Part shown: piece after piece, positions 11,863 to 30,706 of the stretch
Layout: each line of letters opens with the position of its first letter
Position numbering within the stretch: the first letter of the stretch is position 1
Sequence record: NC_049389.1
DNA: 31,128 nucleotides
Strand: one strand, 5' to 3'
From: Peduovirus P24E6b
The notes under the pieces: model-generated
The model's database searches: none
Told to the model about the DNA's origin: nothing
Seen by the model: only the letters and a program-made list of their open reading frames with translations
Program-made: the position numbers and the translations under genes

Positions 11863-14622
11863 ATGAGCACGAAATTTAAAACCGTTATCACTACTGCCGG
11901 AGCCGCAAAGCTGGCTGCCGCCACTGTCCCCGGCGGGAAAAAAGTAAACCTGTCTGCAATGGCCGTGGGTGACGGTAATGGCAAATTACCGGTGCCGGAT
12001 GCCGGTCAGACGAAACTGGTGCATGAGGTCTGGCGTCACGCTCTGAATAAAGTCAGTGTGGATAATAAGAATAAAAACTATATTGTGGCTGAACTGGTTG
12101 TTCCGCCAGAAGTGGGCGGCTTCTGGATGCGTGAGCTTGGTCTGTATGACGATGCCGGAACACTGATTGCGGTATCCAACATGGCAGAAAGCTATAAGCC
12201 AGAACTGGCTGAAGGCTCCGGACGTGCGCAGACCTGCCGCATGGTTATTATTCTCAGCAACGTGGCGTCCGTTGAGCTGAGTATTGATGCCAGCACAGTG
12301 ATGGCTACGCAGGATTACGTCGATGACAAAATCGCAGAGCATGAGCAGTCCCGCCGCCATCCTGACGCCACGCTGACAGAAAAAGGTTTTACTCAGTTAA
12401 GCAGTGCAACAAACAGCACCAGTGAAAAGCTGGCGGCAACGCCAAAAGCGGTCAAGGCTGCGAATGACAACGCAAATTCACGTCTGGCGAAAAATCAGAA
12501 CGGTGCAGATATCCAGGATAAATCAGCTTTTCTGGACAATGTTGGCGTTACCAGCCTGACGTTTATGAAAAACAATGGCGAAATGCCGCTTGATGCTGAT
12601 CTGAATACGTTTGGTCCTGTTAAGGCTTATTCAGGTATCTGGTCTAAAGCAACATCCACCAACGCAACACTGGAGAAAAATTTCCCGGAAGATAATGCTG
12701 TCGGTGTGCTTGAGGTTTTTGCTGCCGGCAATTTTGCAGGTACGCAACGCTTTACCACGAGAGACGGCAATGTATACATGCGTAAACTCGCCAATAGGTG
12801 GAATGGCACTGATGGTCCGTGGGGCGTATGGCGTCACACTCAATCTGCTACCCGCCCTTTGAGTACGACTATAGACCTGAATACGCTTGGAGCCGCCGAG
12901 CATCTTGGTTTATGGCGTAACAGTAGCTCAGCTATAGCTTCATATGAACGCAATTATCCAGAGGAAGGCGGCTTTGCTCAGGGGATGCTTGAGATCCTCG
13001 AAGGCGGAAATTATGGAAGAACGCAACGTTATACCACTCGCCGTGGAAATATGTATGTCCGCTGTCTTGCGGCAAGCTGGGATGCATCAAATCCGCAGTG
13101 GGAACCGTGGTTAAGAGTCGGTCATCAGTCAGAGAGTCGTTATTACGAAGGTGATTTAAATGTTCTAACCGACCCCGGTATTTACAGTGTTACAGGAAAG
13201 GCAACAAACGGTCCGATGCTGGACACCGTTGGCGCGACACTACTTGGGATACTGGAAGTAATCAGACGTTTTGATGGTGTGTCTGTCTGGCAGCGTTACA
13301 CAACCACAGGGAAATCAGAAACCACACAGGGACGCACTTTTGAGCGCGTCTACGCCGGGAGCAAATGGACCGAATGGCGAGAAGTATATAACTCCTTTTC
13401 GTTGCCTCTGAATCTGGGCATCGGTGGCGCAGTGGCAAAACTATCCAGTCTGGACTGGCAGACCTACGATTTTGTGCCGGGCAGTCTGATAACCGTGCGG
13501 CTTGATAACATGACCAACATTCCCGACGGTATGGACTGGGGCGTCATTGATGGCAACCTGATAAACATCGCAGTTGGTCCGAGTGATGATTCCGGTACGG
13601 GGCGCTCAATGCATGTATGGCGCAGCACTGTAAGTAAAGCGAACTACCGCTTTTTTATGGTGCGTATTTCAGGAAATCCGGGAAGCCGCACGATCACGAC
13701 AAGACGTGTGCCAATTATCGACGAAGCTCAGACATGGGGCGCGAAACAGACATTCAGTGCTGGCCTTTCTGGTGAACTGTCCGGCAATGCGGCGACAGCA
13801 ACAAAGCTGAAAACAGCCCGTAAAATTAATAACGTTTCGTTTGATGGAACATCAGATATTAACTTGACGCCGAAAAATATTGGTGCATTTGCTTCAGGAA
13901 AAACAGGAGACACCGTTGCGAATGATAAAGCCGTTGGGTGGAACTGGAGTAGCGGAGCCTATAACGCAACTACTGGTGGGGCATCAACGTTAATTCTTCA
14001 TTTTAATATCGGTGAAGGAAGTTGTCCCGCCGCCCAGTTCCGCGTTAATTATAAGAACGGCGGTATTTTTTATCGTTCTGCTCGTGACGGTTACGGATTC
14101 GAGGCTGACTGGTCTGAGTTTTATACCACAACGCGAAAACCTACAGCGGGAGATGTCGGTGCACTGCCGTTATCTGGTGGTCAATTGAATGGTGCTCTGG
14201 GTATAGGAACATCCAGTGCTCTTGGCGGTAATTCGATTGTTTTGGGTGATAATGACACGGGCTTTAAACAAAATGGTGATGGTAATCTGGATGTTTATGC
14301 TAATAGCGTCCATATTATGCGCTTTGTCTCGGGAAGTATTCAAAGTAATAAAACCATAAATATTACGGGGCGTGTTAATCCCTCGGATTACGGTAACTTT
14401 GATTCCCGCTATGTCCGGGATATCCGGCTTGGTGGTGCTGCCACATACAAACCTGCGAACAATGGCATGACATGGACACATCAGGCACCGTCCGGGTGTG
14501 TATATTCCGGCATTATTGTTCAGGATACCGGCTCAAACTCTGCCGATAACATTGGTGGTGTATATTACAGGCCGGTTCAGAAATACATTAACGGGACATG
14601 GTATAACGTGGCGCAGGTATAA
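11863..14622 (+). CDS. H: tail fiber protein, P2 gpH-like with mosaic central/distal region
   Basis: 919 aa. N-terminal ~190 aa and C-terminal ~150 aa (ALGGNSIVLGDNDTGFKQNGDG..., ...YINGTWYNVAQV) resemble P2 H as I recall. The central part is lower GC and contains three tandem ~80-aa repeats. Confidence 0.85.
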   Translation: MSTKFKTVITTAGAAKLAAATVPGGKKVNLSAMAVGDGNGKLPVPDAGQTKLVHEVWRHALNKVSVDNKNKNYIVAELVVPPEVGGFWMRELGLYDDAGTLIAVSNMAESYKPELAEGSGRAQTCRMVIILSNVASVELSIDASTVMATQDYVDDKIAEHEQSRRHPDATLTEKGFTQLSSATNSTSEKLAATPKAVKAANDNANSRLAKNQNGADIQDKSAFLDNVGVTSLTFMKNNGEMPLDADLNTFGPVKAYSGIWSKATSTNATLEKNFPEDNAVGVLEVFAAGNFAGTQRFTTRDGNVYMRKLANRWNGTDGPWGVWRHTQSATRPLSTTIDLNTLGAAEHLGLWRNSSSAIASYERNYPEEGGFAQGMLEILEGGNYGRTQRYTTRRGNMYVRCLAASWDASNPQWEPWLRVGHQSESRYYEGDLNVLTDPGIYSVTGKATNGPMLDTVGATLLGILEVIRRFDGVSVWQRYTTTGKSETTQGRTFERVYAGSKWTEWREVYNSFSLPLNLGIGGAVAKLSSLDWQTYDFVPGSLITVRLDNMTNIPDGMDWGVIDGNLINIAVGPSDDSGTGRSMHVWRSTVSKANYRFFMVRISGNPGSRTITTRRVPIIDEAQTWGAKQTFSAGLSGELSGNAATATKLKTARKINNVSFDGTSDINLTPKNIGAFASGKTGDTVANDKAVGWNWSSGAYNATTGGASTLILHFNIGEGSCPAAQFRVNYKNGGIFYRSARDGYGFEADWSEFYTTTRKPTAGDVGALPLSGGQLNGALGIGTSSALGGNSIVLGDNDTGFKQNGDGNLDVYANSVHIMRFVSGSIQSNKTINITGRVNPSDYGNFDSRYVRDIRLGGAATYKPANNGMTWTHQAPSGCVYSGIIVQDTGSNSADNIGGVYYRPVQKYINGTWYNVAQV

Positions 14623-14625
14623 TTT

Positions 14626-15153
14626 ATGCAGCATTTAAAAAATATTACGGCGGGTAATCCAAAAACGGTTGAACAATATCAATTGACAAAGGGTTTTGAT
14701 GTTGTCTGGTTTTTTTCAGAAGATGGTAAGAACTGGTACGAAGAACAAAAGTATTTTGCTGATGACACGATAAAAATAGCGTACGACAAAGATAATATTA
14801 TCCGCTATGTGGAAAAGGATGTGACAGCTATCAGACCGGATGGATTAAGTGTTGTTGAAGTGGCGGATATTACTGCTAACCGACGGGCGGACATTTCAGG
14901 GGGCTGGATGTTTAAGGACGGCAAAGTGATTAAACGCATTTATACGGCAGAGGAATTGCTGCAGCAGGCAGAAAACCGGAAAGCCAGACTTCTTGCAGAT
15001 GCTGAATCCGTGATTTTGCCGCTGGAGCGCGCGGTCAGACTGAACATGGCAACAGATGAGGAGCGTAGCCGACTGGATGCATGGGAGCGTTACAGCGTTC
15101 TGGTCAGTCGTGTGGATCCTGCAAATCCTGAATGGCCGGAAATGCCGCAATAA
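14626..15153 (+). CDS. G: tail fiber assembly (chaperone) protein, P2 gpG-like
   Basis: 175-aa ORF immediately after the tail fiber gene; size and position match P2 G. Confidence 0.8.
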
Positions 15154-15374: not shown

Positions 15375-15968
15375 ATGTTTACTAAGCGACGATTAAAAAA
15401 TATTAACTGGGAGGCAAGTTCAGTGATTCTTGCCATGGTTCTCTTTGTTGGAAATATATTTTATACAAATCATCGTGATGATATAAGCATGGAGGCTGAG
15501 AGGGACAGTATCAGAACAATGTTTGCATATGAAATCGCTAATAACCATCGCGCTCTCACTTTTCTTGATAAAACGAGATATATTGGCTTTGACGAAAATT
15601 CGGAGCATTTTGTTGGCGAGCCTTTTGCCATTAATGTCAAATCATTAGGGGGGCCTCGCTTACAGATTGCATTAAACCAGACTGATAAAGTGTTTAAATC
15701 CTACTTCAGCGAATTAAGTAAGCTTGATAAAGAGGATGTTACTCTTCTTATGGACTATTACCATGAGCAAAGCATCCTGCTGGAGCGTGTAAAATCTACG
15801 TTACAGAAGATGAAAAGTGGTAATGATATTAAAGTTGATATTGATGGTTACTTATTAGAAGAACACTTCATGAATGAGCTTAATCTTTCTAATATTTTGC
15901 TTAAACGCTATAGCCATTTGTTGTCACAACACGCCAAAGAACATAAAACAAAAGATTTACATAATTGA
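15375..15968 (+). CDS. hypothetical membrane-anchored protein encoded in AT-rich cargo at the P2 Z/fun position
   Basis: 197-aa ORF with AAGGTG Shine-Dalgarno 5 nt upstream; N-terminal hydrophobic segment (SVILAMVLFVGNIFY), then a charged, probably helical soluble domain. Surrounded by AT-rich non-coding DNA unlike the backbone. No recognisable family from sequence alone. Confidence 0.6.
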   Translation: MFTKRRLKNINWEASSVILAMVLFVGNIFYTNHRDDISMEAERDSIRTMFAYEIANNHRALTFLDKTRYIGFDENSEHFVGEPFAINVKSLGGPRLQIALNQTDKVFKSYFSELSKLDKEDVTLLMDYYHEQSILLERVKSTLQKMKSGNDIKVDIDGYLLEEHFMNELNLSNILLKRYSHLLSQHAKEHKTKDLHN

Positions 15969-29620: not shown

Positions 29621-30706
29621 TTATTCTTCAGTCTTATAACTCCTTGCGTATGAGCGTGGGGTGACTGCAGTCCAGCCATCTCTGGCGGGGGCATTACTAG
29701 AATGGCGTTTATTGGTGCCTTCTGTGGCGACTACTTTGGCTCCACGCCTTGTAAAAGCATTAATGACCGCTTGATGAGGGTGTTTATCGGAATCCGGTGC
29801 GCATGATATAAATGCACAAACACCACTTCTTCCTCCTTCGCTTACAATATTTCCAACGAGCTTATTTAGCACCGCTGGACCGATGTTTCTCCTGCTTCCA
29901 TGGTGGGGCACTTGAATAAATGATAATGAGTTATTATTTATATGATCAGCAGCCATATCTAATGCAGTTATTCCTGCATCACCTGTAAATACTAGTGTTT
30001 TATTGTCAATTTCAATTTTTAATATAACGCTTGAATTGTTTTGTGCAGTAGTTGTGTCCTTGTCATCAATTCCCTCATCAGAGAACCAATCAGCAATATA
30101 CTCGACTTGTTCTTTGGCTTTCTCAAAAAAGTAGTTATATGCATCTGTACCACTGGTTGCAGTTGTTTCTGCTTTTTCAGGCATTCTTGCAAAATCGGGG
30201 ATTAATGTTTCATAGTATGCTTGTGTTGGTCCAATAACAACCAGTTTAGAATTGTCCCAAGTCCTGCCTTGAAAAGGCTCCTTAATTTCTATTCCTTTTT
30301 TTTTCGCTGATTTGACGGCATCATAGGCTTTTTGTAGATTATCTTGTATACGTCTGGCAATACTTGCATCTGTTATCCTTCCATCAGCAAATTCCTGCGC
30401 GAGATTTTCATTATGCTCCCAAGGCTGGTGAATCCAGAACTCTTTGACTTCCGCATTCTCAATCACATGCTCAAGGCCGCCAGCATGGTCGCTATCTGGA
30501 TGCGTGGATATGAGTAAGTCAATAGTATTTGTATGATAGTATTTCTGTAAATGTTCAATTATTTGTGGACCAGTGCTTGCGTACCCCGCATCAATTACGA
30601 CAACTTTTTGCTCTGCTCTTGTTCCGTGGAGGTTGCCCCATCTTATGCAGATAGCATCTCCACTTTTTTTTTCTCCAACTGCTAAGAAATCAACTTCGTA
30701 ACCCAT
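29621..30706 (-). CDS. metallo-beta-lactamase-fold hydrolase, ComEC-like (predicted nuclease) in cargo at the P2 tin/old position
   Basis: 361 aa; motifs STHPDSDHAGG (HxDxDH-type MBL motif II, nt ~30485-30505) and VPHHGS near the C-terminus as in ComEC/Rec2-type MBL domains; AAGGG Shine-Dalgarno 8 nt upstream; AT-rich codon usage unlike the backbone. Confidence 0.65.
   Translation of the reverse strand: MGYEVDFLAVGEKKSGDAICIRWGNLHGTRAEQKVVVIDAGYASTGPQIIEHLQKYYHTNTIDLLISTHPDSDHAGGLEHVIENAEVKEFWIHQPWEHNENLAQEFADGRITDASIARRIQDNLQKAYDAVKSAKKKGIEIKEPFQGRTWDNSKLVVIGPTQAYYETLIPDFARMPEKAETTATSGTDAYNYFFEKAKEQVEYIADWFSDEGIDDKDTTTAQNNSSVILKIEIDNKTLVFTGDAGITALDMAADHINNNSLSFIQVPHHGSRRNIGPAVLNKLVGNIVSEGGRSGVCAFISCAPDSDKHPHQAVINAFTRRGAKVVATEGTNKRHSSNAPARDGWTAVTPRSYARSYKTEE

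Follow-up and report, generated by a model that had tools for sequence, protein, structure and literature searches.

Gene H of Peduovirus P24E6b raises the question of what three consecutive, diverged repeats in the middle of a P2-type tail fibre represent, and what part they play in the fibre. The window analysed was the whole stretch of 31,128 nucleotides in record NC_049389.1, and the nucleotide coordinates given here are positions within it. We conclude that the repeats are, with high probability, three "pyocin knob" domains in tandem, carried within a mosaic fibre of the P2 type. The observation of three repeats is correct but ordinary, as the knob domain, a gp37 with three knobs, and the mosaic H of phage L-413C have all been published.

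Gene H and its three tandem repeats

The gene order V-W-J-I-H-G in this region is that of P2 and D8, and the present H shares its entire DNA sequence (100% identity) with the gpH gene of D8 and 12W, both Escherichia phages. Because H has an N-terminal Phage_tail_fib domain and a neighbouring chaperone gene, it was taken to be a tail fibre, and its N-terminal tail-collar fibre domain and its place in the gene order, after baseplate gene I and ahead of chaperone gene G, identify it as one of the P2 gpH type. The features discussed below are as follows.

11863..14622, + strand: gene H, tail fibre protein of 919 aa; open reading frame confirmed
11863..12315, + strand: N-terminal baseplate-attachment domain, P2 H-like (Pfam Phage_tail_fib PF12571, aa 1-151, E=3e-57)
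12370..12495, + strand: phage tail fibre repeat (Pfam Phage_fiber_2, aa 170-211)
12589..12864, + strand: knob 1, pyocin-knob-type domain (aa 243-334)
12865..13143, + strand: knob 2, pyocin-knob-type domain (aa 335-427; 40% identity to knob 1)
13144..13407, + strand: knob 3, diverged pyocin-knob-type domain (aa 428-515)
13408..13782, + strand: domain D4, uncharacterised (aa 516-640; T6 gp37 counterpart aa 400-515)
13783..13881, + strand: GNAATATKLKTARKINNVSFDGTSDINLTP motif, putative junction element (aa 641-673)
13873..14166, + strand: Mu S'-like / gp37_C segment (aa 671-768; 8JU3, E=3e-48 for that stretch)
14383..14619, + strand: C-terminal tip cassette (~aa 841-919; likeness to the C-termini of Mu S and P2 H)
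14626..15153, + strand: gene G, tail fibre assembly chaperone (Pfam Caudo_TAP)

Upstream of the repeats a Mu S-like stretch extends as far as aa 231, and a Pfam search of H left aa 212-678 without any match. Domain D4 likewise had no Pfam match and no sequence relative in the PDB, and its monomer model was of low confidence (pLDDT ~30). In P0021 the GNAATATKLKTARKINNVSFDGTSDINLTP motif directly follows knob 3.

The three consecutive units reported in the initial annotation were recovered, each of ~90 aa, with domain-profile boundaries at aa 244-333, 335-425, and 428-514; in the list above, unit 1 begins at aa 243, one residue before its profile boundary. Their DLN motifs, 92-93 aa apart, begin at residues 246, 338, and 431. 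All three intervals originally marked for the repeats were in frame, but the second began three codons past its DLN. Common to every unit are the motifs DLNx(F/L), G-x-(W/Y), N-x-P, G-x-LE(V/I), QR(F/Y)TT, Y/F-x-R, and W-x-x-W.

Pairwise alignment, which had been proposed as a check, found units 1 and 2 clearly alike, with a Smith-Waterman score of 180 against 26 +/- 4.9 for shuffled sequences (z=31; none of 1000 shuffles scored as high) and an hhalign E-value of 4.9e-28 at 40% identity. As single sequences, unit 3 and either of the others were marginal (z ~2.4-2.6; 24-25 of 1000 shuffles as high), and the kinship of unit 3 is supported by profiles and by the predicted fold. HMMs of the orthologues of unit 1 or 2 matched unit 3 units and the reverse, with E-values from 5e-6 to 4e-3; profile comparison of unit 3 by hhalign gave E=2e-4, BLASTP aligned H units 2-3 out of register onto units 1-2 of T6 gp37 (E=3e-13), and the predicted strand pattern was identical across all three units. 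All three modules are homologous to one another; by sequence, unit 3 is weakly similar to units 1 and 2, and its assignment as a knob, which draws on the profiles and the monomer model, is a probable one.

At the DNA level, TRF found no tandem repeat, and the sole direct repeat was a 17-nt stretch coding for DLNT(F/L)G at a spacing of 276 nt. The duplication is therefore ancient and can be seen in the protein alone.

Assignment of the repeats to the pyocin knob domain

Proteins 75-99% identical to H are publicly named "pyocin knob domain-containing protein", and the pyocin knob is presumably also the CDD domain 'pyocin_knob'. NCBIfam gave no match for H, for its single units, or for T6 gp37, and, with Pfam also blank over the repeats, the public name does not come from either library. 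Membership of the H units was assigned from our own profile and fold search. When whole H was searched against PDB sequences with phmmer, the matches, to Mu S/S', 9CUY (a short tail fibre), and S16 gp37, all lay outside the repeats; whole-protein phmmer was insufficient, and a profile of the unit was needed to find their PDB relatives.

The profile, built from 16 repeat units, matched the R1 pyocin fibre 6CL5 (E=3.9e-8), the R2 fibre 6CL6 (E=4.6e-7), 6CT8 (E=1.8e-5), and the tail fibre of Pseudomonas phage Pa193, 9B45 (E=4.3e-4). The best stretch covered chain positions 140-209, or about residues 457-526 by arithmetic from the construct start, and lies inside Knob2 (445-528). A second stretch, on the C-terminal half of Knob1, was weak (7.1 bits, i-E 72) and by itself not significant.

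Structure prediction, also suggested at the outset, was run with AF2 and gave pLDDT values of ~67-89, mostly 74-89, across aa 236-505, with the same helix-turn followed by five strands in each unit. In knob 3 the β3-β4 loop is longer and the β4-β5 loop shorter. The top Foldseek match of the model was again 6CL5 (E=2.7e-7), followed in order by phi812, 6CL6, phi11 gp45, NF5 RBP, P68, and 80alpha. Overall TM-scores to the templates were low (0.2-0.3), because the model is a monomer of an expected intertwined trimer. The H units have the marks of the knob fold, an antiparallel β-sheet of 5-6 strands with variable loops in ~85 residues. Knobs follow one another in trimeric fibres or tailspikes, and the three contiguous units of H, in a protein identified as a tail fibre, share this arrangement.

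The knob domain was found in 2363 cluster representatives. Among the best 150 of these 2363, proteins carried 1-7 knob copies (mode 3) at a median spacing of 95 aa, and the arrays were centred ~43% along the protein length. Within the present window the domain was absent from all reading frames other than H, and it was absent from P2 H. The pyocin knob was first defined in crystal structures obtained for the R1 and R2 pyocin fibres (Buth et al. 2018, PMC6116203) and has been described as a mobile pseudo-domain (PMC12143355). Three pyocin knob domains have been reported in gp37 of the T4-like phages HP3, ES12, and ES21 (PMC9127763), all of which were among the tblastn matches of the present module.

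Origin, exchange, and role of the knobs

The initial annotation had proposed that the middle of H was a horizontally shared module, and this was borne out. Residues 226-640 of H, covering K1-K2-K3 and D4, are colinear with aa 105-515 of T6 gp37 (BBF63668) at 53% identity, and by tblastn the block is present in ~200 T-even-type gp37 genes. The region is also carried by 323 E. coli genomes. Each H unit is nearer to its positional T6 counterpart than to its neighbours in H (~30-40% identity), so the triplication is older than the separation of the P2-like modules from the T-even ones. The divergence of the H and gp37 blocks is old and does not reflect a recent transfer. Lower GC in the middle segment, originally offered as a sign of transfer, is a weak argument, because the C-terminal parts (0.468 and 0.451) and G (0.455) are lower than the knobs (0.495); the N-terminal part is at 0.523.

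Peduovirus 11W, P24B2, 899, and vB_YpM_50 and Yersinia phage L-413C have the same H architecture as the present phage, and the H of L-413C is 913 aa long. Compared with L-413C, aa 231-620 show 61% nucleotide identity and the flanks 97-98%, with sharp breaks between them. Across these six P2-like phages the knob region and the tip are the two main exchanged blocks, the remainder being 92-100% identical in five; outside the cassettes (aa 1-230 and 621-845), identity is 94-100% for all pairs. In L-413C the exchanged block additionally includes D4. There are at least four alleles per knob and two tip alleles. Relative to the present H, the knob alleles of L-413C are 47-67% identical and its tip allele 45%, whereas the tips of the Y. 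pestis phages L-413C and vB_YpM_50 are 98% alike and their knobs 47-67%. Recombination moves one to three knobs at a time as a cassette, and the knobs assort independently of the tip. For L-413C, a mosaic H was already described by Garcia et al. 2008 (cited in PMC2893161). Phages 11W and 899 also diverge over a short patch, aa 191-220.

Positive selection on the knobs was considered and rejected, as dN/dS was 0.06-0.21 with dS saturated. These values indicate that recombination with old alleles is the source of the variation.

By analogy with the pyocin structures, each repeat would form one globular bead on the trimeric fibre shaft, with three β-sheets packed about the threefold axis and the variable loops facing outward. 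The fibre runs from a P2 H-type, baseplate-binding N-terminus through the three knobs and D4 to the Mu S'-like segment and the tip, the tip being separately exchangeable and probably folding with the help of chaperone G. The triplication is ancient, with the same K1-K2-K3 order in T-even gp37 and no DNA repeat remaining. The identity of the domain, the mosaic make-up of the fibre, and the exchange of cassettes are shown by these data; we infer that the knobs make the shaft longer and serve mainly its folding and rigidity, and they may in addition bind surface polysaccharide weakly, in an accessory role.

A stronger form of that last proposal, which would supplement the knob assignment, makes the array an accessory (secondary) cell-surface binding site whose outward loops bind LPS or O-antigen sugars and help to orient the fibre, so that knob swaps would tune host range alongside the tip. 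We hold this to be possible but doubtful. Accessory binding has been proposed for pyocin Knob2, where R-type fibres vary most, and sialic acid is bound by a β-prism of knob-like form in the K1F endosialidase (Buth et al., PMC6116203); in Pseudomonas Migulavirinae fibres, knob2 similarity follows the host spectrum (PMC12625404). That the knob region and the tip are the two main exchanged blocks of P2-like H genes fits as well. However, the knob variation consists of recombined old alleles under purifying selection, with no sign of positive selection in place, and predicted loops showed no significant excess of variable positions relative to strands (Mann-Whitney p=0.087). L-413C and vB_YpM_50, both grown on Y. 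pestis, share their tip but not their knobs, and in T6-type gp37 the module occupies that end of the distal half-fibre which is most remote from the tip that binds the cell.

A bolder variant, to which we give slightly less credence, would have the knob array determine specificity as well as the tip and reassort freely with it, single knobs of ~270 nt being exchanged from a pool that T-even gp37 has in common. It would be the combination of knob alleles and tip allele that decides host range, and the allele counts given above are compatible with this.

The initial annotation had called the repeat segment a horizontally acquired receptor-binding module, in effect the primary receptor-binding part of the fibre. 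Horizontal sharing of the module, its lack in P2 H, and the occurrence of knobs in receptor-binding proteins speak for this, yet we consider it improbable. At aa 243-515 of 919 the knobs occupy the middle of the shaft; ~330 residues separate them from the C-terminal tip, which is swapped separately, and the ~400 residues after them include the Mu S'-like segment and the tip. The tip is homologous to those of P2 H and Mu S, has the dedicated chaperone gene G adjacent, and is exchanged independently of the knobs. The homologous module is moreover N-proximal in T6-type gp37, and T2/T6-type fibres bind their receptor via gp38, at the end opposite to the knob module (PMC8309999). Chance resemblance, or recent tandem duplication in the phage lineage, for which the weak pairwise similarity of unit 3 might speak, deserves practically no credence given the z of 31 for units 1 and 2, the profile and fold support for unit 3, the lack of a DNA-level repeat, and the closeness of each unit to its T6 counterpart; recent duplication was rejected outright on the missing DNA repeat.

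With the repeats read as pyocin knobs, the Pfam-blank aa 212-678 can be annotated as three pyocin-knob domains and one uncharacterised domain. For phage engineering, the junctions at ~aa 231, 620, and 841, together with the knob-by-knob cassettes, mark swap-tolerant sites in P2-like fibres, and if the knobs bind surface glycans they would offer an additional point at which P2-based or pyocin-based particles could be retargeted. Beyond the correct annotation of H, the significance is small.

Comparison with known fibres

P2 H (NP_046775) is 669 aa long, as given in the initial annotation. The likeness of the two termini to P2 holds well at the N-terminus (84% over aa 1-207) and loosely at the C-terminus (39% over aa 770-919, with a 68-residue gap), which matches Mu S about equally well. 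The middle segment is not uniformly conserved in P2-like H proteins, being absent from P2 H, where its place is taken by a Gp34_trimer-like segment together with a second Phage_fiber_2 repeat.

The three knobs are alike in order and spacing in T6 gp37 and H, but the block stands near the N-terminus of T6-type gp37, after the gp36-binding end, and in mid-protein in H. Beyond the block, T6-type gp37 has a long shaft and then the intramolecular chaperone Peptidase_S74, a domain that Pfam did not detect in H. The GNAATATKL...FDG motif is upstream of the block in T6 gp37 (aa 70-106, in a short match covering aa 63-106) and downstream in H (aa 641-673). H shares a module with gp37 but is not itself a gp37, having neither its N-terminus nor its C-terminal Peptidase_S74 domain.

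Like the knobs of the R1 and R2 pyocins (6CL5 and 6CL6), those of H are ~85-90 aa long and lie in tandem upstream of the tip. In both, adjacent knobs have arisen by duplication and diverged (20% identity in R2 pyocin, 30-40% in H), and in both it is the knob region and the C-terminal domain that vary. H and pyocin knobs are ~14-19% identical in structural alignments. The carrier is a P2 H-type coliphage fibre in one case and an R-type pyocin fibre in the other; H has three knobs where the R1 and R2 pyocins have two, and beyond them the pyocins have an iron-containing shaft and a lectin-like foot, whereas H continues with D4 and the Mu S'-like segment.

Three related units in the tail fiber gene H

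The genome in the window belongs to a P2-like (Peduovirus) phage and keeps the P2 gene order V-W-J-I-H-G, in which the tail fiber assembly chaperone gene G adjoins the tail fiber gene H. The H DNA is 100% identical to gpH of Escherichia phages D8 and 12W, many further Peduovirus H genes share 94-97% identity with it, and the repeat region alone is present in 323 of 5426 complete E. coli genomes. The protein is indeed longer than P2 H, at 919 aa versus 669 aa, as the initial annotation had stated.

Gene H and its repeated units
11863-14622, + strand: gene H, 919 aa
12589-12864, + strand: unit 1, starting at aa 243 in this parts list
12865-13143, + strand: unit 2
13144-13407, + strand: unit 3

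The same annotation had described three tandem repeats of about 80 aa, and pairwise alignment and profile comparison confirmed three consecutive related units. The intervals it marked all share the H reading frame, and each starts at a DLN motif or close to one (aa 246, 338, and 431); the domain profile refined the boundaries to aa 244-333, 335-425, and 428-514. Units 1 and 2 gave a local alignment score of 180, against 26 ± 4.9 for 1000 shuffles (z = 31), and hhalign aligned them at 40% identity (E = 4.9e-28). Compared as single sequences, unit 3 was marginally similar to units 1 and 2 in the shuffle test (z about 2.4-2.6). With profiles made from orthologous units of seven proteins, those of units 1 and 2 matched the third units at E values of 5e-6 to 4e-3, reciprocal matches were found, and hhalign also linked unit 3 (E = 2e-4). 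BLASTP against T6 gp37 returned a shifted alignment that placed H units 2-3 onto T6 units 1-2 (E = 3e-13). A 16-unit alignment has in common the pattern D-L-N-x-L, G-x-W/Y, N-x-P, G-x-L-E-V, Q-R-Y-T-T, Y/F-x-R, W-x-x-W. Across the repeat region, no tandem repeat is left at the DNA level.

Pyocin-knob identity and mosaic make-up of H

Pfam assigned to H an N-terminal Phage_tail_fib domain (aa 1-151), one Phage_fiber_2 repeat (aa 170-211), a gp37_C match (aa 679-754), and a weak gp37_trimer match (aa 805-851), with no family on aa 212-678; NCBIfam gave no match for H. Proteins 75-99% identical that were retrieved by database search are named "pyocin knob domain-containing protein" by NCBI. When searched against all PDB sequences, the 16-unit profile matched the R1 pyocin fiber 6CL5 (E = 3.9e-8), the R2 fiber 6CL6 (E = 4.6e-7), 6CT8 (E = 1.8e-5), and the Pseudomonas phage Pa193 tail fiber 9B45 (E = 4.3e-4), with no further significant match; the stretch aligned in the pyocin fiber is Knob2. 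An AlphaFold2 model of H aa 226-640 had a pLDDT of about 67-89, mostly 74-89, over the three units, each of which has the same short helix and five strands. Foldseek ranked 6CL5 first (E = 2.7e-7), followed by phi812, 6CL6, phi11 gp45, NF5 RBP, P68, and 80alpha receptor-binding proteins. Because the PDB profile matches, the model, and the Foldseek ranking agree, the repeats are three tandem pyocin-knob-type domains, knobs 1 to 3.

The unit profile found 2363 cluster representatives at E<=0.001 among 1.84 billion proteins. In the best 150 of these 2363, there are 1 to 7 knobs per protein, most commonly 3 (53 proteins), with a median start-to-start spacing of 95 aa and arrays centered at about 43% of protein length. 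By copy number, spacing, and position in those 150, the three mid-fiber knobs of H, spaced at 92 aa, are therefore a typical arrangement.

Closest relatives of segments of H
aa 1-207: P2 H, 84% identity
aa 226-640, knobs 1-3 and the following domain, D4: T6 gp37 aa 105-515, 53% identity, colinear
aa 641-673: T6 gp37 aa 70-106, GNAATATKLKTARKIN..FDG motif
aa 671-768: variable part of Mu S' (8JU3), strong match
aa 770-919: P2 H, 39% identity, loose relationship
about aa 846-917: similar to the tips of Mu S and a short tail fiber

Of the two termini previously called P2-like, the N-terminus is so, and the C-terminus is loosely related. No knob was found in the 669 aa of P2 H. By tblastn, the knob region matched 225 phage records; T-even-type gp37 genes, at about 58% identity, make up about 200 of these. 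D4, at H aa 516-640 (window 13408-13782), has a conserved counterpart at T6 gp37 aa 400-515. Pfam assigned it to no family, sequence search returned no relative of solved structure, and its monomer model is of low confidence (pLDDT about 30).

The motif GNAATATKLKTARKIN..FDG..DI.LTP occurs at window 13783-13881 and in T6 gp37, downstream of the knob module in H and upstream of it in T6 gp37. Such opposite flanks are expected if the motif is a shared recombination joint. In the relative P0021, the GNAATATKL motif comes straight after knob 3, and D4 is absent. Judging from these sequences, the conserved GNAATATKL motif may be a recombination joint between tail-fiber modules. Conserved motifs as recombination joints are an old idea in the tail-fiber literature.

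Low GC, taken earlier as a sign of a swapped middle segment, is a weak indicator: the knobs are at 0.495 and the N-terminal part at 0.523, and GC is still lower in the C-terminal parts of H (0.468 and 0.451) and in G (0.455). The baseplate genes upstream of H are at 0.576.

Probable accessory loci outside H

Between G and the sheath gene FI, where P2 has fun(Z), lies an ORF of very low GC (about 0.34-0.39; window 0.52). It had no Pfam or PADLOC match, is labeled hypothetical in phage D8, and was probably gained by horizontal transfer as an accessory gene (moron). Two genes after replication gene A, at the P2-like genome end, match PADLOC PDC-M48, a candidate anti-phage defense system, at what we take to be the P2 old/tin accessory-gene hotspot. 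The fold of component B is that of a metallo-beta-lactamase (Pfam PF00753, E = 2e-13), and the protein resembles the LmuA and Avs1a models more weakly.

15375-15968, + strand: ORF of 197 aa
29118-29606, + strand: PDC-M48 component A, 162 aa, E = 6e-49
29621-30706, - strand: PDC-M48 component B, 360 aa, E = 9e-99

Cassette exchange, knob function, and known systems

H was compared with its counterparts in L-413C, vB_YpM_50, 11W, P24B2, and 899. Two main blocks are exchanged, the knob region (window 12553-13722) and the tip (about aa 841-919, window 14383-14622); what is exchanged is one knob or several together and, separately, the final ~80 codons. The L-413C block includes D4 as well. Outside these blocks, five of the six phages have H genes that are 92-100% identical, apart from aa 191-220, a short stretch in which 11W and 899 also diverge.

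Divergent blocks compared with the window (nucleotide identity)
L-413C: aa 231-620, 61%; flanks 97-98%
11W: knob 3, aa 421-510, 73%
P24B2: knobs 1-2 and part of knob 3, aa 241-460, 76-82%
899: middle of knob 1 to the end of knob 3, aa 291-520, 65%

Since dS is saturated in the divergent blocks and dN/dS is 0.06-0.21, their variation reflects recombination with old alleles under purifying selection and not positive selection in place. vB_YpM_50 has the knobs of the window (96-100%) and the tip of L-413C (98%), while 11W has the tip of the window and a different knob 3; knob and tip alleles thus assort independently.

The knobs are pyocin-type domains in mid-shaft that are exchanged as modules. 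By analogy with the pyocin fiber structure, each would form a bead of three chains in which the sheets lie on the threefold axis and the loops face outward, and the knobs would serve as modules that aid folding, stiffen the shaft, and make it longer. Accessory binding of surface polysaccharide, as proposed for pyocin Knob2 (PMC6116203) and for Pseudomonas phage fibers (PMC12625404), can also be proposed for H and fits the knob region being one of its two main variable blocks. The results give this role no positive support: predicted loops hold no significant excess of variable positions (p = 0.087), no positive selection is seen in the divergent blocks, and the Y. pestis phages L-413C and vB_YpM_50 have a common tip with different knobs. 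As for the initial view of a receptor-binding module, a primary role of this kind is unlikely, because the knobs are followed by about 400 further residues that include the exchangeable tip, G follows the fiber gene, and T6-type gp37 carries the same module at the end farthest from the adhesin.

The three-repeat finding is correct and already known. The knob family and its tandem organization are published (PMC6116203), as are "Three pyocin knob domains" in the distal long tail fiber protein of the T4-like phages HP3, ES12, and ES21 (PMC9127763), all three among our tblastn matches to the knob region. The pyocin knob is also listed as a mobile pseudo-domain common to several phage families (PMC12143355). 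The exact H protein is in GenBank, and near-identical proteins bear the knob label. A mosaic H in L-413C, whose architecture is the same as that of the window H, is published as well (PMC2893161). To these known systems, the present comparison makes a modest addition, namely a knob-by-knob cassette pattern, independent of the tip, among P2-like phages.
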